This document shows positions 9,428 to 26,181 of a DNA stretch of 33,512 bases, piece after piece (the stretch's first letter is position 1; each line of letters begins with the position of its first letter). The notes beneath the pieces are model-generated. The model did not search any database. It saw only the letters and a program-made list of their open reading frames with translations, and was not told the DNA's origin. Source of the DNA: Gammaproteobacteria bacterium (GTDB lineage: Bacteria; Pseudomonadota; Gammaproteobacteria; Tethybacterales; Persebacteraceae). The stretch covers positions 1 through 33,512 of the forward strand of contig JBPCWZ010000060.1 of assembly GCA_051009015.1 (NCBI GenBank), in the 5' to 3' direction. The position numbers and the translations under genes are program-made.

Positions 9428-10682
9428 CAACCGCCCGCCGCAATACGCCCCGCGCCGCCAAAGTCATGCGGTGTGCATTGGCAATGTCGTCATCGGCGGC
9501 GGCGCGCCGGTTGTCGTCCAATCCATGACCGACACCGATACCGCCGATGATTTGGCAACGGCAATTCAATGCGCCGACCTCGTCCGCGCCGGTGCCGAAA
9601 TGGTGCGCATTACCGTCAATACGCCAAAGGCGGCGGCTGCCGTGGAATCGGTGCGCAAGCGGCTTGATGATATGGATATTAACGCGCCGCTTATCGGTGA
9701 TTTTCATTACAACGGGCACAAACTTCTGGCGCAATATCCCGACTGCGCGCGGGCGCTGGCAAAATACCGCATCAACCCCGGCAATATCGGCAAAGGCGAC
9801 AAGCACGATGCGCAGTTTCGCGCCATTGTGGATATCGCACTGCACAACGACAAACCCCTGCGCATTGGCGTTAATTGGGGGAGTGTTGACCCCGATTTGC
9901 TGGCGGCGATGATGGATGAAAACGCCCGGGCAAAACCGCCGCAAGATTCTCAAATCGTTTTGCGCTCGGCATTGGTGGAGTCGGCATTACTTTCGGCGCG
10001 GGCGGCGCAACAATGGGGAATGCCGCCGGAAAGAATTGTCATATCGTGCAAAACCAGCCGCATACCGGATTTGCTGGCGGTATATCGCCGCCTGGCAAAA
10101 GAATGCCGCTATCCCCTGCATTTGGGTTTGACCGAAGCGGGCGGCGGTTTGGGCGGGACGGCATCATCCAGCGCGGCGATGGCGATATTACTTGCCGAAG
10201 GCATCGGCGACACCATTCGCGCATCGCTGACACCGGCACCGGGCGCGGCACGAAGCGAAGAGGCAAAGTTGTGCTGTGTTTTATTACAATCGCTCGGCTT
10301 GCGCGCTTTTGCCCCGCGCGTTGCCGCATGCCCCGGTTGCGGGCGCACCGGCAGCGACTTTTTTCGCCGTTTGGCGGGGACGATAGAAGAACACATTGCG
10401 CGGCAACTGCCAAAATGGAAGCGGGAATATCCGGGCGTGGAAAATCTTAATATTGCGGTAATGGGCTGCATTGTCAATGGCCCCGGCGAATCGCAACATG
10501 CCGACATCGGCATATCCCTGCCGGGCAGCGGCGAGAGTCCTGTCGCGCCGGTTTTTATTGACGGCAAAAAAACCACGGCACTAAAAGGCGAAAACATCGC
10601 CGCAGATTTCATCAACATACTGGAACAATACATCCGCAACAAATACGCCCGGGCAGAGGGCGGTGGTGAAAAATTCGGTTAA
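9411..10682 (+). CDS. ispG: 4-hydroxy-3-methylbut-2-en-1-yl diphosphate synthase
   Basis: The track ORF was trimmed to the ATG at 9411. Motifs present: VVVQSMTDTDT, RINPGNIG, ACPGCGRT and MGCIVNGPGE. Confidence 0.9.
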   Translation: MTPADNNRPPQYAPRRQSHAVCIGNVVIGGGAPVVVQSMTDTDTADDLATAIQCADLVRAGAEMVRITVNTPKAAAAVESVRKRLDDMDINAPLIGDFHYNGHKLLAQYPDCARALAKYRINPGNIGKGDKHDAQFRAIVDIALHNDKPLRIGVNWGSVDPDLLAAMMDENARAKPPQDSQIVLRSALVESALLSARAAQQWGMPPERIVISCKTSRIPDLLAVYRRLAKECRYPLHLGLTEAGGGLGGTASSSAAMAILLAEGIGDTIRASLTPAPGAARSEEAKLCCVLLQSLGLRAFAPRVAACPGCGRTGSDFFRRLAGTIEEHIARQLPKWKREYPGVENLNIAVMGCIVNGPGESQHADIGISLPGSGESPVAPVFIDGKKTTALKGENIAADFINILEQYIRNKYARAEGGGEKFG

Positions 10683-10691: not shown

Positions 10692-11291
10692 ATGGCGGCA
10701 AGGATAGCGGGCGGCAAATCAAATAATACGGCTTTGCCGCGGCGGCGCGGGAAGTATCGGTGTTTGGTTGTGGACCCGCCGTGGCGGCAGGGAAAGACCG
10801 GCAAGCGTAGCGCGCGCCCGAATCAAGGCGTTACGCTGGATTATCCGACAATGCCGCTTTCGGAAATCAAGGCGTTGCCGGTGCCGGAATGGGCGGCGGA
10901 AGAATCATTTTTGTGGTTGTGGGCGACTAACAGCAAAGACCGCACGACCGGCTTGCCGGTGGTCAAAATGGCGTTTGAGTTGCTGGACCATTGGGGCTAT
11001 ACTTTTCATACCATGCTGACATGGGACAAAAAAACCGGACCTTGCCCGTTCAGCCCGTATCAAATTGTGAGCGAGCATGTTTTGTTTGCATGGCGCGGGG
11101 CGGCGCGTTTTGAGCGGGCACATCTCGGACGGATGAAAACGGTGTTTTCTGAATCGCCCCGCGGGCACAGCGTCAAACCGCAAACTTTATACGAGCATAT
11201 CCGCGCCGCTTTTCCGGGTCCGCGCCTTGATGTTTTCGCCCGCCAAAAGCGGCAGGGTTTTGACGGTTGGGGAAACGAATATGACGGATAG
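10692..11291 (+). CDS. MT-A70-family DNA (adenine-N6) methyltransferase
   Basis: Motifs present: VVDPPW (motif IV), FLWLWATN, MLTWDKK, EHVLFAWRG, HSVKPQTLYEHI and RLDVFARQ...GFDGWGNE, all hallmarks of MT-A70/M.MunI-like enzymes. There are only 9 nt after the ispG stop and no obvious SD. Confidence 0.8.
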   Translation: MAARIAGGKSNNTALPRRRGKYRCLVVDPPWRQGKTGKRSARPNQGVTLDYPTMPLSEIKALPVPEWAAEESFLWLWATNSKDRTTGLPVVKMAFELLDHWGYTFHTMLTWDKKTGPCPFSPYQIVSEHVLFAWRGAARFERAHLGRMKTVFSESPRGHSVKPQTLYEHIRAAFPGPRLDVFARQKRQGFDGWGNEYDG

Positions 11292-12099
11292 TTCCGCCGT
11301 TGCGGTTAAAAAACCCCCGCGCCACAAAACACCGGCGAAGCGAGCCAACTTGCTTTCCGGCTCGCAATGGCTGCAGCATTCTTTCAGCATCTGGCGCGGC
11401 TTGGGCAAAACTTCCGCCGAAAGAAAAATCGGGCATCCGGCGATGTTTCCGGTCAGTTTGGTATCGCGTATTTTGGACGCCTATACCCGTTGCGAAGGCG
11501 TTTTGCTGGACCCTTTTGCCGGTAGCGGGTCGGCGCTTGAAGCGGCGCTGGCAAAAGGGATGGATGTGGTCGGCGTTGACATTAACCGGCACTTTTACGA
11601 TATTTTTAAGGAGCGGGCGGCGCCCCTTTCATCATCGCAATGGTGCTATATTGTCGGCGATGCGCGGCATCTGCGGGCATTGTTGCCACCCGACAGCGCT
11701 GATGTTTGCATAACTTCGCCGCCGTATTGGGATATCCTCAACCGCAAGCGCAGCGCCGATGGCAAAAACGCCCGCTCGTATTCTTCCCTCGCCGACGACA
11801 TGGGCAATGTGAAGTTGTACCGCGAGTTTTTGGATTGTCTGGGGGATGTTTTTGCCGGGGTTCGTTCGGTGCTGAAACCCGGCGCGCCTTTTGTTTTGAA
11901 TGTTGCGGATTTGCGCAAGGGTCCGGTTTTTTACCCCCTGCACATGGATGCCGCCGAGGAAGCGCGGCGACACGGTTTTGTATTGGAGGACATTATTGTT
12001 TGGGACCGGCAATCCGACTATAACAACCAGCGCCCGCTCGGGTATCCGTATAAGTTCATCATCAACAAAGTTCACGAGTATCTTCTCGTGCTGCGCTGA
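11281..12099 (+). CDS. DNA methyltransferase (N4-cytosine or N6-adenine), motif order X/I before IV
   Basis: The track ORF was trimmed to the ATG at 11281, which overlaps the upstream gene by 11 nt. HPAMFPVSL and LLDPFAGSGS (AdoMet binding) precede CITSPPYW (catalytic SPPY). Confidence 0.75.
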   Translation: MTDSSAVAVKKPPRHKTPAKRANLLSGSQWLQHSFSIWRGLGKTSAERKIGHPAMFPVSLVSRILDAYTRCEGVLLDPFAGSGSALEAALAKGMDVVGVDINRHFYDIFKERAAPLSSSQWCYIVGDARHLRALLPPDSADVCITSPPYWDILNRKRSADGKNARSYSSLADDMGNVKLYREFLDCLGDVFAGVRSVLKPGAPFVLNVADLRKGPVFYPLHMDAAEEARRHGFVLEDIIVWDRQSDYNNQRPLGYPYKFIINKVHEYLLVLR

Positions 12100-13121
12100 T
12101 GTCCGGCATTTTGACAAACGCTTCGTTTTGGCGATGGGCGGGTTTTTTGGCAAACCCCGCACGCGCCGCCGACATTCATGCCGAAATGAATCCGGACAAG
12201 AAACAAACATTTGCCGAAGAATACCGCAACCTGACCGGGGTTGTGCTTTCGTTGCCCGGCGACAAAGCGCCGTTTTATGTGTGGAAGCCGGGAAGCAGCA
12301 AATACGGAGTGCAGTTGCGCGTTTATTTTTTCGGCACGATGGGCGCGCACCCGGATGCGGCGGGCTTATTCAACATTACCGATGGGCGGGCGAAAGGCAC
12401 GCTCAGAATCAACAACGGCGAGTTTGTGCGCGGATTGTTTGCGGCGGGTTTTCTCATCGGAAAAAATGCCGACTGCGCCGTCCGCGTGAGGGAGCGGGCG
12501 GGGCAATTCACCGGCGATTTTGACGAAGGTTTCGGCATGATGACCGCGCAAGAGCGCGCGGAATTGCTCGTCAGGGAGGAATGCGCGCAAACCGGCAGCC
12601 GCACTTTTGAGGCGGACACCTTGGTGGAATTGATAAACAAACACGGTGCCCGGGCGGATGAAACCTTGAAGCAATTGTGTGCGCGCGGCGTTTTGCTTGA
12701 AAATAAAAATCATAACGCCTACACGCTTTCGGGCGCGGATATATTGCCCGGCGAGTTGGAAAAAGAATCCGCGGTGCTTGTTGTGCGCGGCGAATCCAAC
12801 GCCGACAAAAGGGAAGTTTTGCTGGAAACCTACGCGCGCAACCGCGGCTGGGTGCGGCTGGCAAAAAAAGTTTTCGGCGAAAAATGCATGTGCCAAAACT
12901 GCAACAATGCCTTCACCAAAAAAGACGGCAAGCCATATATTGAAGTCCATCACATAGTACCTTTGCATAAGGGAGGAGAAGATGGCGTGTGGAATTTGTC
13001 GGTGCTGTGCGCGCATCATCACCGAATGGCGCATTTTGCCCGCGACAAGGACAGGCGGACGATAAGCAGTTATCTGGTGAAAGAAAACCAACGGTTGCGC
13101 GCCGCCGTTATTAAGCCATAA
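12099..13121 (+). CDS. HNH endonuclease with an unrecognised ~240-aa N-terminal region (putative restriction endonuclease)
   Basis: The C-terminus CQNCN...PYIEVHHIVPLHKGGEDGVWNLSVLCAHHHRMAH is a McrA-like HNH motif. Its ATG overlaps the TGA of the preceding methyltransferase (TGATG at 12097-12101). Confidence 0.75.
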   Translation: MSGILTNASFWRWAGFLANPARAADIHAEMNPDKKQTFAEEYRNLTGVVLSLPGDKAPFYVWKPGSSKYGVQLRVYFFGTMGAHPDAAGLFNITDGRAKGTLRINNGEFVRGLFAAGFLIGKNADCAVRVRERAGQFTGDFDEGFGMMTAQERAELLVREECAQTGSRTFEADTLVELINKHGARADETLKQLCARGVLLENKNHNAYTLSGADILPGELEKESAVLVVRGESNADKREVLLETYARNRGWVRLAKKVFGEKCMCQNCNNAFTKKDGKPYIEVHHIVPLHKGGEDGVWNLSVLCAHHHRMAHFARDKDRRTISSYLVKENQRLRAAVIKP

Positions 13122-13176: not shown

Positions 13177-13185
13177 GGTTAAAAT
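13177..13185. repeat. Right copy of the 9-bp direct repeat GGTTAAAAT
   Basis: Identical to 10677-10685. It overlaps the mobA start codon by 2 nt (ATG at 13184). Confidence 0.6.
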
Positions 13186-13948
13186 GGGAGCGATGAACGG
13201 CGGGGATGTTATTGGGGTTGTTTTGGCTGGCGGGCGGGGGCGGAGAATGGGCGGCGGCGACAAGGGGTTGCTGAAACTCGGCGGGATGACGCTTGCGGCT
13301 ATTGCCGTGCGCCGTTTGCAAAAACAAACGCGCGCCGTCATCATTAACGCCAATCGCAATCATTTGGAATATCAACAAACCGGCTGTCCGGTTGTCGCCG
13401 ATGCCGCAGTGGAAAACGGCGGCAAAGATGAAAACGACAAGCGCAAACAAAGTTGCGAAAGTGAAAATAACAAGCGCGGCGGCTTTGATAATCGCGGCGG
13501 TGATAAGCACAAACGCGGCGGGGTTGATAACTTCGGCGGGGGGAATGCTGACGGCGGGGTTGATGATTCTTGCCGGTTTGCCGGTCCTTTGGCGGGGATG
13601 CTTGCCGGGATGCGGGCGGCGGATGGGGAATGGGTGCTTTTTGTGCCGTGCGATTGTCCGTTTTTTCCCGCTACTTTGGCGCGGGAGTTAGCCGCCGGGG
13701 CAAAAAAGCAAAATGCCGATATTGCCGTTGCCGTTGCCGGCGGCAGGGAGCAGCCGGTTTTTATGCTTGTCCGGCGGCGTTTGTTTGCGGATATGGCGGC
13801 GTTTGTCGGCGGCGGCGGGCGCAAGATAGATTTGTGGTACGGGCGTCATCAATGTGCCAAAGTGTTGTTTGACGATGCCGAAGCATTTGCCAACATAAAC
13901 ACGCCGGAAGATTTGGCGGCGGCGCAAAAGCGGCTTTTGTCGGCATAA
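13184..13948 (+). CDS. mobA: Molybdenum cofactor guanylyltransferase with an internal low-complexity insertion
   Basis: Motifs present: GVVLAGGRGRRMGGGDKGLL, NANRN, GPLAGMLAGM, VPCDCPFFP and NINTPEDL. An alternative ATG lies at 13193. About 56 extra residues sit between VVADA and RFAGPLAG relative to E. coli MobA as I recall it. Confidence 0.85.
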   Translation: MGAMNGGDVIGVVLAGGRGRRMGGGDKGLLKLGGMTLAAIAVRRLQKQTRAVIINANRNHLEYQQTGCPVVADAAVENGGKDENDKRKQSCESENNKRGGFDNRGGDKHKRGGVDNFGGGNADGGVDDSCRFAGPLAGMLAGMRAADGEWVLFVPCDCPFFPATLARELAAGAKKQNADIAVAVAGGREQPVFMLVRRRLFADMAAFVGGGGRKIDLWYGRHQCAKVLFDDAEAFANINTPEDLAAAQKRLLSA

Positions 13949-14009: not shown

Positions 14010-15950
14010 ATGGATGATATTTTTGCCGCCGACGGGATATTGGCGCGGGCGATGCCCGGCTACCGCCCGCGCGCGGGGCAGGTTGAGATGGCGCGGGCGG
14101 TGGAGAAGGCGGCGGCATCGGGCGGGTGTTTTATGTTTGAAGCCGGCACCGGCATCGGCAAAACTTTCGCCTATCTGGCGCCGATTATCCAAAACGGATT
14201 AAGCGCGGTCATATCAACCGGCACGCGCGCTTTGCAGGATCAACTTTTTCTGGGCGACATTCCGCTGCTGGAAAAAGCATTCGGGCGCAAAGTGCGGGCG
14301 ACCGTGCTTAAGGGGCGGGCGAACTATTTGTGCAAGCGCAATATCGCCGCGGGCGGCGGCGGGATGCTGTCGGGCGCGGAAGACAGCGAGTGGGCGAAAA
14401 TAACCGCCTTTGCCGCGCACACCAAAGACGGCGACATAAGAAGCGCCGACAATATCGCCGCCGATTCTCCGGCGATTGCCGCGGCGGTGTCCACGCGCGA
14501 AAGTTGCCCGGTGCAAAAGTGCGATTATTACGGCGAATGTTTCTTATACGCCGCCCGCGCCCGCGCACGGGAGGCGGATATCGTCATTGTCAATCATCAT
14601 CTTTTTCTCGCCGACATGCGCCTGAAAGAAGAAGGAATAGCGGAAATATTGCCGTCGCGCGATGTTTTGCTGTTTGACGAAGCGCATCTTTTGCCGCAAC
14701 TTGCAACGCAATATCTCGGCGACGGCGCAAGCGTTTTGCAGTTGCTGCGGTTGATAAAACAATCCAAAAGCAACACTCCCGCGGCGCTTGCTTTGACGGC
14801 GGCGGCGGAAAGGTATTTGCGCGAACTCTCCGCCCTCGGCGGTTTGCGCCTGCCGCGCGATGTTGTAATGACAAATGCCAAAACCGCCGATGCGGGCGCG
14901 GTTGTGGCACAAGCGGCACAAGGGTTTGCCGAAGAGTTGATAGACAATGCCGGTGAAGACGAAGTTGCGGCAAACTGCGGCGAGGCGACATTGCGCTGGG
15001 CGCGGCAAATGGGCGAATGGCTTGCCGAAGAAGACGAAAGCGAAAACGGCGAAAAGGGGGAAGATGAGGAGAAAGAAGGGGAGGAAGAATCGCCGCGCGT
15101 GCGATGGCTGGAAAAGAATGTCAAAAACGCCGTTATGCATTGTGCGCCATTGTCCGGTCGCGCGGCTTTTTTGCGCCAGTGGGAGAATTGCAATTGCGTT
15201 ATCTTTACTTCGGCGACTCTTTCGGTCGGCGGCGGTTTTGACGATTTCGCCCATGCCGCCGGTTTGGATTCTTCCAATGACGCATCGGCATGGCAAAGCC
15301 CTTATGATTTTGCCAATCGGGCGATGTTGTATTTGCCGCCCGGCTTGCCGATGCCAAATGACGCCGGACACACGCAAGCGGCGGCGGAAGTCGCTTTGCC
15401 GCTGATAGAAGCAAACCGCGGGCGGGCTTTTGTTTTGTTTTCCAGTTGGCGCGCTTTGCAAACCGGGGCGGAAATACTTCGCGAGCGTTTGCCGCCGGAA
15501 TATGTGATATTGCGGCAGGGGGACGAATCCAACGAGCGTTTGCTGGCAAAATTCAAGAACAGCGAAAACGCCGTCCTTGCCGGTACTTTGTCATTTTGGC
15601 AGGGGGTGGATGTCAAGGGAGAATCGCTTTCGCTTGTTGTCGTGGATAAGATACCCTTTGCCCCGCCGGACGACCCGGTTTTGGCGGCGCGCGACCGGTG
15701 GCGGCGGTTGCGCGGCGAAGATCCTTTTCGCAAGAATCAACTTCCGGCGGCGGTGACATTGATGAAACAAGTAGCGGGCAGGTTATTGCGCGATTTTGAC
15801 GATTACGGCGTATTCACCGCCTGCGACCCGCGCCTGACAACACGCGGATACGGCAAAGTAATACTCCGCTCCCTGCCGCCGATGACACAAGCCAAAACCG
15901 CCAAAGAAGCGGCGGATTTTTTGCGCAGGATGGCGGCGGGGGGAAAGTAG
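14010..15950 (+). CDS. ATP-dependent DNA helicase, DinG/YoaA (XPD-like, Fe-S) family
   Basis: Motifs present: Walker A FEAGTGIGKTFAYL, DEAH box (LFDEAHLL), a Cys cluster C-x5-C-x5-C (CPVQKCDYYGEC) and C-terminal VVVDKIPFAPPDDPV. Confidence 0.85.
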   Translation: MDDIFAADGILARAMPGYRPRAGQVEMARAVEKAAASGGCFMFEAGTGIGKTFAYLAPIIQNGLSAVISTGTRALQDQLFLGDIPLLEKAFGRKVRATVLKGRANYLCKRNIAAGGGGMLSGAEDSEWAKITAFAAHTKDGDIRSADNIAADSPAIAAAVSTRESCPVQKCDYYGECFLYAARARAREADIVIVNHHLFLADMRLKEEGIAEILPSRDVLLFDEAHLLPQLATQYLGDGASVLQLLRLIKQSKSNTPAALALTAAAERYLRELSALGGLRLPRDVVMTNAKTADAGAVVAQAAQGFAEELIDNAGEDEVAANCGEATLRWARQMGEWLAEEDESENGEKGEDEEKEGEEESPRVRWLEKNVKNAVMHCAPLSGRAAFLRQWENCNCVIFTSATLSVGGGFDDFAHAAGLDSSNDASAWQSPYDFANRAMLYLPPGLPMPNDAGHTQAAAEVALPLIEANRGRAFVLFSSWRALQTGAEILRERLPPEYVILRQGDESNERLLAKFKNSENAVLAGTLSFWQGVDVKGESLSLVVVDKIPFAPPDDPVLAARDRWRRLRGEDPFRKNQLPAAVTLMKQVAGRLLRDFDDYGVFTACDPRLTTRGYGKVILRSLPPMTQAKTAKEAADFLRRMAAGGK

Positions 15951-24874: not shown

Positions 24875-24885
24875 AGGAGAAATTG
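24875..24885. repeat. Left copy of the 11-bp direct repeat AGGAGAAATTG (contains the SD of the methyltransferase-HNH gene)
   Basis: An identical 11-mer at 26304-26314 is the SD region of the rhodanese gene. Confidence 0.6.
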
Positions 24886-26181
24886 ATGGGAGCGAAAAAA
24901 TCGCCAATCTTGAATCGGACGCTTTTTACGGGCGATAATTTGGAAATAATGCGGGTGATGAATTCAGAATCGGTGGATTTGATTTATCTTGACCCGCCGT
25001 TCAACAAAAAATATGTCTTTCCGATTGGTAAAGGAGACGCCGCTAAATTTGGTTTCAAGGACGTTTGGGGGTGGGACAGCGCCCCCGATGAAAGCAATCC
25101 CTATTTGCCTTATGCAGAGTTGTATTCATATGCTGAGCTTGTTGCCGCTACGGTGAATGATAATCCGCTCATTGATAAAAAAATGGCGGACAATATTGTT
25201 TCTTTTTTGGATGCCATGGGCAAAATCGCGGGACATTCAGAAATGGCGTATTTATCATTTATGGCGACTCGTTTGGTGGAAATGCGGCGGATTCTTAAGA
25301 AATCGGGCAGCATATATTTGCATTGCGACCCGACCATGTCTCACCCTTTGAAACTGTTGATGGATTGTGTTTTTGGTCAGCAGCAATTTATTAACGAACT
25401 CATTTGGTATTACACCAATGCGTCTCGCGGTAAAAAGCGGTTTGCCAAGTCGCATGATGTGATTTTTTGGTTTAGCAAGTCGCTGCCGCCGCGATTTAAT
25501 AGAGAGAAAATTCTTGCCCCTTTTGCCAGTGGCATGACTCAATGGCGATACACCAAAGGTGGCCAAGTCAGCCAACCAATGCCGCAAGGAAAAACTCCCG
25601 ATGATGTGCTGACCTTGCCCGCTTTGAACGCCATGTCCAAAGAGCGTACCGGCTATCCCACCCAAAAACCGATTGAACTGCTTGAATATATCATCATAAC
25701 TTCGAGCAATGATGGCGATATGGTGTTGGACCCATTTTGCGGGTGTGCGACAACGTGCATAGCTGCCGAAAGATTAAACCGTCAATGGATTGGCATTGAT
25801 GTGGCATCTAATGCGGCGGGGCTTGTGCGCCACCGCTTGCTTGATGAAACCAAGCAAGGCAAAATAGATGATGAAAGAGTGCCGTCAATTATTCATTGCT
25901 CTGCGGATAAAGGGGAATTGCCTATGCGCACCGATATGGGTAAAGCCCGCTCAAAAAACATTCGCAGTATTTTATATGGCAAACAAGCCGGGAATTGCAA
26001 TCTTTGTAAACGCCATTTTGAAATTCGTGATTTTCATATTGACCATATCATTGCACGAAATAAAGGCGGTCCCGATGTAGATGATAACTTGCAACTTCTC
26101 TGCGGTTCTTGCAATGCCATCAAGTCTGATCGAACCATGGAAAAGGCGCGCGAAAGGCTTAAAATGCTGGGGTATATTTAA
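24886..26181 (+). CDS. Beta-class N6/N4 DNA methyltransferase fused to a C-terminal HNH endonuclease domain
   Basis: The ATG at 24886 lies 6 nt after AAGGAGA. Methyltransferase motifs: DLIYLDPPFN (motif IV), SGSIYLHCD, NELIWYY, HDVIFWFSK, YPTQKPIELLEYII and VLDPFCGCATT (motif I). HNH domain: CNLCKRH...HIDHIIARNKGGPDVDDNLQLLCGSCNAIKSD. G+C is lower than in flanking genes; hand counts of single 60-nt lines gave 33-53 percent inside versus 52-55 percent in the flanks. Confidence 0.8.
   Translation: MGAKKSPILNRTLFTGDNLEIMRVMNSESVDLIYLDPPFNKKYVFPIGKGDAAKFGFKDVWGWDSAPDESNPYLPYAELYSYAELVAATVNDNPLIDKKMADNIVSFLDAMGKIAGHSEMAYLSFMATRLVEMRRILKKSGSIYLHCDPTMSHPLKLLMDCVFGQQQFINELIWYYTNASRGKKRFAKSHDVIFWFSKSLPPRFNREKILAPFASGMTQWRYTKGGQVSQPMPQGKTPDDVLTLPALNAMSKERTGYPTQKPIELLEYIIITSSNDGDMVLDPFCGCATTCIAAERLNRQWIGIDVASNAAGLVRHRLLDETKQGKIDDERVPSIIHCSADKGELPMRTDMGKARSKNIRSILYGKQAGNCNLCKRHFEIRDFHIDHIIARNKGGPDVDDNLQLLCGSCNAIKSDRTMEKARERLKMLGYI

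Follow-up and report, generated by a model that had tools for sequence, protein, structure and literature searches.

What kind of system is encoded by three overlapping genes that follow ispG on contig JBPCWZ010000060.1 of a Gammaproteobacteria bacterium (assembly GCA_051009015.1)? The stretch analysed here, called the window, is 33,512 nucleotides (nt) long, and all of its coordinates are given on the + strand. The three genes, named M1, M2 and R, encode a small methyltransferase of the MT-A70 family, a second methyltransferase with an SPPY motif, and a protein that ends in an HNH nuclease domain. We put the probability that they form a chromosomally resident Type II (Type IIS-like) restriction-modification cassette, apparently expressed as one coupled unit, at roughly 60%. 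Judged from sequence and gene content, the cassette would belong to a widespread and modular Type II/IIS-like family, organized around an uncatalogued domain at the N-terminus of R that we call Rn, and its overall logic would be that of a known kind of system.

Three overlapping genes and their probable coupling

M1 (10692..11291, +, 199 amino acids [aa]), M2 (11281..12099, +, 272 aa counted from its ATG) and R (12099..13121, +, 340 aa) are intact open reading frames (ORFs) on the + strand, at the positions that the first-pass annotation of this DNA had given. The methyltransferase and nuclease genes are adjacent and co-oriented, the arrangement looked for in a restriction-modification system. 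M1 and M2 overlap by 11 nt (11281..11291, +), with the ATG of M2 at 11281 and the TAG stop of M1 at 11289-11291. M2 and R overlap by 1 nt within the sequence TGATG (12097..12101, +), where the TGA of M2 (12097-12099) and the ATG of R (12099-12101) have one A in common. Both overlaps recur in the closest relative (locus L065), and the 1-nt overlap is also found in L023, L026 and L046. Such overlapping stop and start signals fit with translational coupling of the three genes. In a second assembly (L063), which is 100% identical to the window, the gene caller picked shorter starts for M1 and R; because the sequences are identical, the shorter calls represent a choice of the gene caller and no mutation. 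A scan for promoters and terminators gave matches at background level only.

The first-pass annotation had classified the cassette as a compact Type II/IIS-like restriction-modification system with an unusual part list. The classification is supported by the domain identities, by the tight coupling, and by PADLOC, which places both M1 and M2 under Type II methyltransferase models, and a pair of methyltransferases with a modular nuclease is the most parsimonious explanation; the part list needs correction, as described in the following sections.

Two different amino-methyltransferases

M1 is a minimal MT-A70 family methyltransferase. It matches Pfam MT-A70 (PF05063) over the full length of the profile at 2e-21 (77.1 bits against a gathering cut-off of 23.9) and the PADLOC model MTase_II at 2.5e-36, and the motifs DPPW (aa 28-31), WLWATN, TWDKK, SVKPQ and GWGNE listed in the earlier reading are all present in its translation. 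The best matches in the PDB are Tetrahymena MTA1 (7f4r, 2e-14) and METTL4. Homologues are 55-91% identical to M1, and the catalytic columns including DPPW are invariant in an alignment of 22 sequences that come from several bacterial phyla and one archaeon. M1 is predicted to be an N6-adenine DNA methyltransferase, and it is too small to hold a separate target-recognition domain (TRD).

M2 matches Pfam N6_N4_Mtase at 6.7e-25 as two stretches in swapped order. Its residues 124-249 align to residues 25-144 of TTHA0409 (PDB 2zie), an uncharacterized beta-class enzyme that is among its nearest solved relatives, and its residues 36-114 align to residues 203-278 of the same protein, which bears out the circular permutation that had been proposed from the motifs. 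The motif order seen in the translation is X (HPAMFP, aa 52-57), I (DPFAGSG, aa 77-83) and then IV (SPPY, aa 146-149, extended to SPPYW at 146-150), as had been noted before; this is not the IV-TRD-I order of class beta (PF01555), and an insert of TRD size is absent. An arrangement of this kind is known as topology E, represented by M1.BcnI and M4.BstF5I, in which the S-adenosylmethionine (SAM) motif precedes the catalytic (D/S)PPY with fewer than 100 residues between them, and enzymes of this topology have no inserted TRD, give matches to beta-class profiles and come from multi-methyltransferase systems (Samokhina and Alexeevski, bioRxiv 10.1101/2023.12.13.571470). With its motif order, a gap of 63 aa between motifs I and IV, and no TRD, M2 fits this previously named topology, and therefore the permuted enzyme is rare but not new.

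A serine in motif IV indicates modification of N4-cytosine (PMC4738411, and established knowledge), and the SPPY motif thus suggests that M2 is an N4-cytosine methyltransferase. M2 also matches the N4C methyltransferases 8s9n and 8s9m. The nearest solved relatives of M1 and M2 include DNA methyltransferases that produce N6-methyladenine (m6A) and N4-methylcytosine (m4C), which supports the restriction-modification reading.

A winged helix and an HNH domain in R

Pfam, NCBIfam and PADLOC 2.0 recognize the third gene by its HNH tail alone. In the AlphaFold2 model of R, with a mean predicted local distance difference test (pLDDT) score of 81.7, three modules are seen: Rn (12099..12539, +, aa 1-147), a winged helix (wH; 12540..12734, +, about aa 148-212) and the HNH nuclease domain (12861..13058, +, about aa 255-320). 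The McrA-like HNH that the first-pass annotation had placed at the end of the protein is well founded. Residues 265-312 match Pfam HNH (PF01844) at 3.3e-8 (34 bits against a cut-off of 21.4), and EcoKMcrA (PDB 6ghc) matches the HNH core with its zinc ligands at 7e-11. The HNH residues H284, H285, N299, H308 and H312 are intact and invariant in 20 homologues; the zinc ligands, also intact, are C268, C304, H307 and one more cysteine, either C263 or C265, and C263, C268, C304 and H307 are invariant in these 20 sequences.

A search with R returned about 20 full-length homologues that are 41-66% identical, and also hundreds of proteins of ~196 aa, 42-50% identical to R, whose alignment is confined to its C-terminal 54%. 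Among these short relatives of aa ~150-335, many carry Pfam DpnI_C, a winged helix, and HNH in the same order as in R. The wH of R gives winged-helix matches in Foldseek with a template modelling score (TM-score) of 0.63-0.74 on the target, and is homologous to the DpnI_C-type wH of the stand-alone wH-HNH proteins. Compared with the short family, the wH of the Rn fusions has a deletion of ~11 aa and the conserved KVRQQLQFLRNDG helix is gone, with variable sequence in its place, while the HNH domain stays highly similar. Pfam DpnI_C (PF17726) matches none of the 20 Rn fusion proteins, even at E = 1.

This homology raises the question whether R might instead be a modification-dependent, Type IV-like nuclease directed against foreign m6A-containing DNA (for example Dam-methylated DNA), with M1 and M2 merely adjacent or engaged in another role. 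The wH-HNH proteins and related fusions are m6A-dependent Type IV enzymes, those characterized are toxic in Dam+ cells, and among wH nucleases stand-alone proteins are expected to be modification-dependent and methyltransferase-linked proteins to be methylation-sensitive (Helbrecht et al., 2024; PMC11037411). The 42-50% identity of the wH-HNH half of R to stand-alone DpnI_C-HNH proteins would agree with dependence on modification, and so would the McrA-like HNH and the best PADLOC match of R, a Type IV model, but this match covers the HNH alone. R has neither a DpnI_C-type wH with the methyl-pocket/recognition helix nor a gene that stands alone. Since R is coupled to methyltransferases, methylation sensitivity is what the criterion of Helbrecht and colleagues (PMC11037411) leads one to expect, and the wH of R has also lost the signature helix. 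Two coupled methyltransferases invariably accompany R, other Rn proteins bear nucleases without any wH, so that the wH is not part of the conserved logic, and an m6A reader placed beside an m6A writer would risk self-attack. The evidence disfavours the modification-dependent explanation, which we regard as very improbable. It may rather be that a Type IV-like wH-HNH protein was recruited as the cleavage module of a restriction enzyme and that its reader function has since decayed.

In all three sampled loci of the short wH-HNH relatives, the gene stands alone among housekeeping genes and has no methyltransferase neighbour. These stand-alone DpnI_C-HNH genes (L070 3743-4815, L071 4599-4784 and L072 3797-3994) are flanked by ORFs of 61-75 aa that abut or overlap the nuclease gene; the small ORFs gave no Pfam match and are perhaps partners or regulators.

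Rn, a conserved domain without previous description

The first-pass annotation had overlooked both the wH and the domain in front of it, Rn, which is a conserved domain without previous description. Modelled alone by AlphaFold2 from 45 sequences, Rn is an alpha/beta domain with a pLDDT of 96.8 and a predicted TM-score (pTM) of 0.91. Its invariant residues are Y42, K68, R74, G117 and F118, and E29 and R103 are almost always kept. Searched exhaustively, a set of 1.84 billion representative proteins yielded no more than 82 clusters with Rn, and the majority of these are stand-alone proteins 140-150 aa long. Foldseek found no match to Rn below E = 1e-3 in the PDB or BFVD, and the weak matches above this value were to LAGLIDADG homing endonucleases and dehydrogenase dimerization domains, with a TM-score of up to 0.37. 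A profile of the 45 sequences found nothing among PDB sequences; Pfam and PADLOC gave no family common to the 45 (RAMA and other reader domains were considered); searches of NCBIfam with full-length R and with three Rn proteins returned nothing significant; and a metagenome scan with the Rn alignment returned no confirmed relative.

A LAGLIDADG fold was considered for Rn because of a WAGFLANP motif and the weak Foldseek matches, which were to I-MsoI, I-DmoI and I-CreI derivatives. It was rejected, as the E-values were at least 3e-2, the TM-score did not exceed 0.37 and the hhalign probability was 1%; hhalign moreover aligned a different segment of Rn, and the motif position is occupied by Asn-Pro and not by an acidic residue.

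We propose that Rn is a target-recognition or coupling module. The Rn-wH-HNH architecture and the swapping of nucleases described below fit a build in which a recognition module is joined to a cleavage module, and recognition of DNA by Rn is putative.

A family of cassettes with exchangeable parts

Scanning one genome per species with the M1 alignment as query yielded 62 loci. About 30 of them have M1, then M2, then a gene containing Rn, and the system of the window is therefore not a one-off. Another 12 loci combine M1 with an unrelated protein of ~227 aa, 'c4', whose N-terminus is RecX-like and whose core resembles PD-(D/E)XK, and in about 16 M1 has no evident partner and is an apparent orphan. 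Over 25 intact triplets, pairs of sequences are on average 66.7% identical in M1, 57.8% in M2 and 37.8% in Rn. M1, M2 and Rn co-vary with r about 0.5, indicating that the cassette evolves as a unit.

The nuclease attached to Rn differs among these 25 triplets. Rn is fused to wH-HNH, as in the window, in four triplets, to HNH_2 in six, to T5orf172/MUG113 in four and to another HNH in one; in the remaining ten it is a stand-alone protein of about 145 aa without a conserved downstream gene. One further Rn representative has a NOV_C (PD-(D/E)XK) domain. Fusion to four unrelated nuclease families (HNH, HNH_2, T5orf172 and NOV_C), with coupled nuclease-like genes behind Rn in other cassettes, is the usual signature of a targeting domain in need of a cleavage module. 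No conserved fourth gene was found 3' of stand-alone Rn in the MT-A70 cassettes, where unrelated housekeeping genes are located.

The adenine methyltransferase is exchanged as well. Further stand-alone Rn proteins come from loci in which MT-A70 is replaced, either by a D12 (Dam-like) enzyme joined in one chain with an M2-like domain (L066 and L074-L076) or by a 560-aa gamma-class NPPY enzyme that is followed by M2 (L077); that the adenine enzyme is swapped while M2 and Rn stay fits a need for one adenine enzyme plus M2. In these D12 and gamma subtypes two coupled genes come after Rn. The first product (~300 aa) has an 'AYLLGLITGHG' motif and a weak LAGLIDADG signal (Pfam Hom_end at 0.0036, below threshold), and the second (~160 aa) has a PD-(D/E)XK-like 'DLVFVECK' motif. 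The pair is located at 2964-4330 of L074, 5454-6927 of L077 and 3803-5777 of L032. Homologues of both proteins are also found upstream of M1 in Pelagibacteraceae loci, and none was found in the window. M2 and Rn are thus the constant pair of the Rn-bearing cassettes. Of the earlier list of parts (MT-A70 enzyme, permuted SPPY enzyme, HNH nuclease) the identities hold, but MT-A70 and HNH are exchangeable components.

In the Pelagibacteraceae loci M1 and a convergent M2 flank an unrelated 250-aa protein with a PD..DTK motif (PD-(D/E)XK-like), and Rn is absent. Because M1 and M2 occur there without Rn, the methyltransferases are independent of Rn, and Rn would belong to the restriction side. The recognition site was also sought through the partner nucleases, that is c4 and the 250-aa Pelagibacter protein, and no informative match was obtained. 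Neither of the two (c4 at 227 aa) had a PDB, Pfam or NCBIfam match beyond the RecX-like N-terminus. The c4-type gene lies directly after M1 in L007, L010, L012, L018, L019, L024, L033, L051, L059 and L060, and its product is probably an unrecognized Type II nuclease family.

Cassettes in which Rn is intact, coupled and kept without any nuclease (the ten just counted) bear on two further explanations. A pure targeting domain would be useless there, and Rn may therefore do more than bind DNA. One explanation is a holoenzyme of several subunits, similar to Type I or Type III systems, in which an M1-M2 heterodimer reads the DNA while Rn is a docking or specificity subunit that tethers the nuclease to it, and in which the Rn-alone cassettes would form complexes that only methylate and yet cannot do without Rn. 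Enzymes of class beta and of the MT-A70 family do act as homodimers or heterodimers with division of labour (PMC7544214). Neither M1 nor M2, both minimal enzymes, has an insert large enough for a TRD, in some cassettes the adenine enzyme and M2 form one polypeptide, and the divergence of Rn is about twice that of the methyltransferases, as for specificity subunits. On the other hand, M1 and M2 exist without Rn in Pelagibacteraceae, in other loci M1 is by itself or next to another putative nuclease, and fused double methyltransferases are normal in ordinary Type IIS systems too. We judge the holoenzyme unlikely.

The other explanation makes Rn itself catalytic, as a new-fold nuclease or a DNA glycosylase acting in the manner of R.PabI, so that attached or neighbouring nucleases would merely complete strand breakage. 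The family occurs most often as stand-alone Rn, placed where a restriction gene would be, K68 and R74 do not vary and E29 and R103 hardly do, and no known fold matches the domain. A metal-dependent nuclease site would need more acidic residues than the one that is nearly invariant here, however, no similarity to any glycosylase or nuclease was found, and fusion to four different nuclease families argues that Rn is without cleavage activity. A catalytic Rn is improbable on this evidence. The large share of nuclease-free Rn cassettes is the main weakness of the restriction-modification reading, and it keeps alive this explanation, the holoenzyme and the disfavoured modification-dependent nuclease.

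IS1595 transposases and ABC ATPases form recurring clusters near the cassettes. An IS1595-type transposase gene is located directly upstream of M1 cassettes in five loci, L010 (M1 with c4), L026, L028, L044 and L058, which suggests how cassettes move. At L067 (4457-7122), on a contig of complete scale, M1-M2-Rn is followed by DUF5131 and by a pair consisting of an AAA_15/AAA_21 ATPase and DUF4276, putatively defence-related, and a gene for an anti-Pycsar-like metallo-beta-lactamase is located upstream; these surroundings look like a defence island. The IS1595 flanks and the one cassette beside a putative defence ATPase pair were counted in favour of restriction-modification.

The M2 gene, the Rn gene or both are split or truncated at L003 (6443-8354), L058 (6517-7737) and L055 (6543-7764), which could be due to cassette decay or to long-read indel errors. 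The cassette-bearing genomes include several marine or sponge-associated metagenome-assembled genomes (Poribacteria, Spongiihabitans, Poriferihabitaceae, Porisulfidus, Dehalococcoidia and Arenicellales).

The cassette in its chromosomal setting

In the window, the cassette is preceded by ileS, lspA, ndk, rlmN and ispG and followed by mobA and dinG. The stop codon of ispG is at 10680-10682 and M1 starts 9 nt after it, and the GC content of the cassette is that of its flanks. In the closest relative, a metagenomic contig with sox genes (L065), R is 66% and ispG 82% identical; the cassette is likewise placed after ispG, but other genes are located downstream. The shared position and the shared overlaps indicate that the cassette is a long-term resident of the host lineage.

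This setting invites an explanation without any defence function, in which M1 and M2 are housekeeping RNA or epigenetic methyltransferases of the rlmN-ispG operon and R is domesticated or inert. The short distance to ispG within the same-strand ndk-rlmN-ispG run, the flank-like GC content and the same position in the relative would all suit it, as would the weak matches of M2 to RNA N2-methylguanosine (m2G) methyltransferase families and the presence of RNA enzymes in the MT-A70 family. The post-ispG position is found in the closest relative only, however, and elsewhere the contexts are unrelated and sometimes beside transposases; the strongest matches are DNA methyltransferases, and repeated fusion to nucleases is hard to square with RNA modification. 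We consider an absence of any defence role the least probable of all the explanations.

Three other genes of the window deserve mention. The mobA gene (13184-13948, +) encodes a MobA-like NTP_transf_3 protein whose domain is interrupted midway by ~55 inserted residues, many of them Gly, Asp, Lys or Asn (ENGGKDENDKRKQSCESENNKRGGFDNRGGDKHKRGGVDNFGGGNADGGVDD), and dinG (14010-15950, +) encodes a DinG-like helicase with an acidic low-complexity insert (EEDESENGEKGEDEEKEGEEES). A gene at 24883-26181 (+) encodes a 432-aa fusion of a normal-order N6_N4_Mtase domain (1.4e-45) with a C-terminal HNH domain (4.9e-13). It stands alone between aminotransferase and rhodanese genes, and its product may combine methyltransferase and nuclease in a single chain. 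An origin in Neisseria was considered and dismissed, since the window contains no DNA uptake sequences.

How the cassette may work, and what it would mean

As a restriction-modification system, the cassette would operate as follows. M1 (m6A) and M2 (m4C) would modify the host copies of one, probably asymmetric, site, with one enzyme for each strand. The gene order M1, M2, R together with coupling would have the methyltransferases synthesized before or along with the nuclease. R would cut unmodified DNA, with Rn, perhaps together with the degenerate wH, providing a target recognition that matches that of the methyltransferases, and the host would be protected by methylation. The McrA-type HNH would be a recruited and exchangeable cleavage module.

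Several findings weigh against this reading. Rn stands alone, with no fused or conserved neighbouring nuclease, in 10 of the 25 intact cassettes, and a part of the M1 loci are the apparent orphans mentioned above. The closest relatives of the C-terminal half of R are stand-alone wH-HNH genes without methyltransferases, the characterized wH-HNH enzymes are m6A-dependent, and R has an HNH of the McrA type. The fold of Rn has no known counterpart, and binding of Rn to DNA is putative. A cassette with the GC content of its flanks, inside an ndk-rlmN-ispG operon, is also atypical for a recently mobile defence element.

A bolder and tentative extension, which we hold to be rather doubtful, is that Rn is a new fold defining a distinct modular class of restriction-modification systems. 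Rn would always be accompanied by a topology-E M2, its adenine methyltransferase could come from any of three classes and its nuclease, fused or separate, from five or more kinds, and ~40% of the cassettes would have no nuclease. Nuclease-free Rn would then be a trans-acting specificity or coupling subunit of the methyltransferases, or else a new DNA-damaging or DNA-blocking effector.

If the family is active, an uncatalogued and compact restriction component of 147 residues would be added to the known repertoire, one that is naturally combined with HNH, HNH_2, GIY-YIG-like, PD-(D/E)XK and possibly LAGLIDADG-like nucleases. Modules of this kind are what makes Type IIS enzymes useful tools, and they show how defence systems are built from parts. 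The nuclease-free cassettes pose the question of whether a restriction-type reader can function without a nuclease or whether Rn serves the methyltransferases. In this family the minimal MT-A70 catalytic domain, which is of the type ancestral to eukaryotic m6A writers, is moreover encountered in bacteria and in combination with another methyltransferase.

Comparison with known systems

Each part of the cassette has a known counterpart from which it departs in some respect. The catalytic domain of Tetrahymena MTA1 and METTL4 matches M1 over about 175 residues with DPPW kept, but M1, part of a probable bacterial restriction-modification cassette, consists of nothing besides this domain (199 aa), and MTA1 requires MTA9 and DNA-binding partners whereas members of the M1 family are also found alone. 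The likeness of M2 to M1.BcnI and M4.BstF5I was judged by motif order and spacing alone. R resembles the wH-HNH Type IV enzymes (PMC11037411) at aa ~150-335 in identity and in the order wH then HNH, but differs from them in being fused to Rn and coupled to two methyltransferases, and in the loss of the wH helix and the DpnI_C signal. With EcoKMcrA only about 60 residues align, and the N-terminal 5-methylcytosine (5mC) reader of McrA is unrelated to Rn.

As a whole, the cassette is best compared with Type IIS restriction-modification systems that have two methyltransferases and an HNH-type cleavage domain, such as MboII and MnlI, a comparison made by description and not by sequence. MboII pairs one m6A and one m4C enzyme. 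The cassette differs from both systems in that its MT-A70 enzyme is a minimal domain, its second enzyme is permuted, its putative recognition part is without a family assignment and many M1-M2-Rn relatives are without a nuclease. What it has in common with them is the plan itself, in which two amino-methyltransferases stand beside a modular nuclease made of a recognition part, putative in the case of the cassette, and a non-specific beta-beta-alpha-Me/HNH part.

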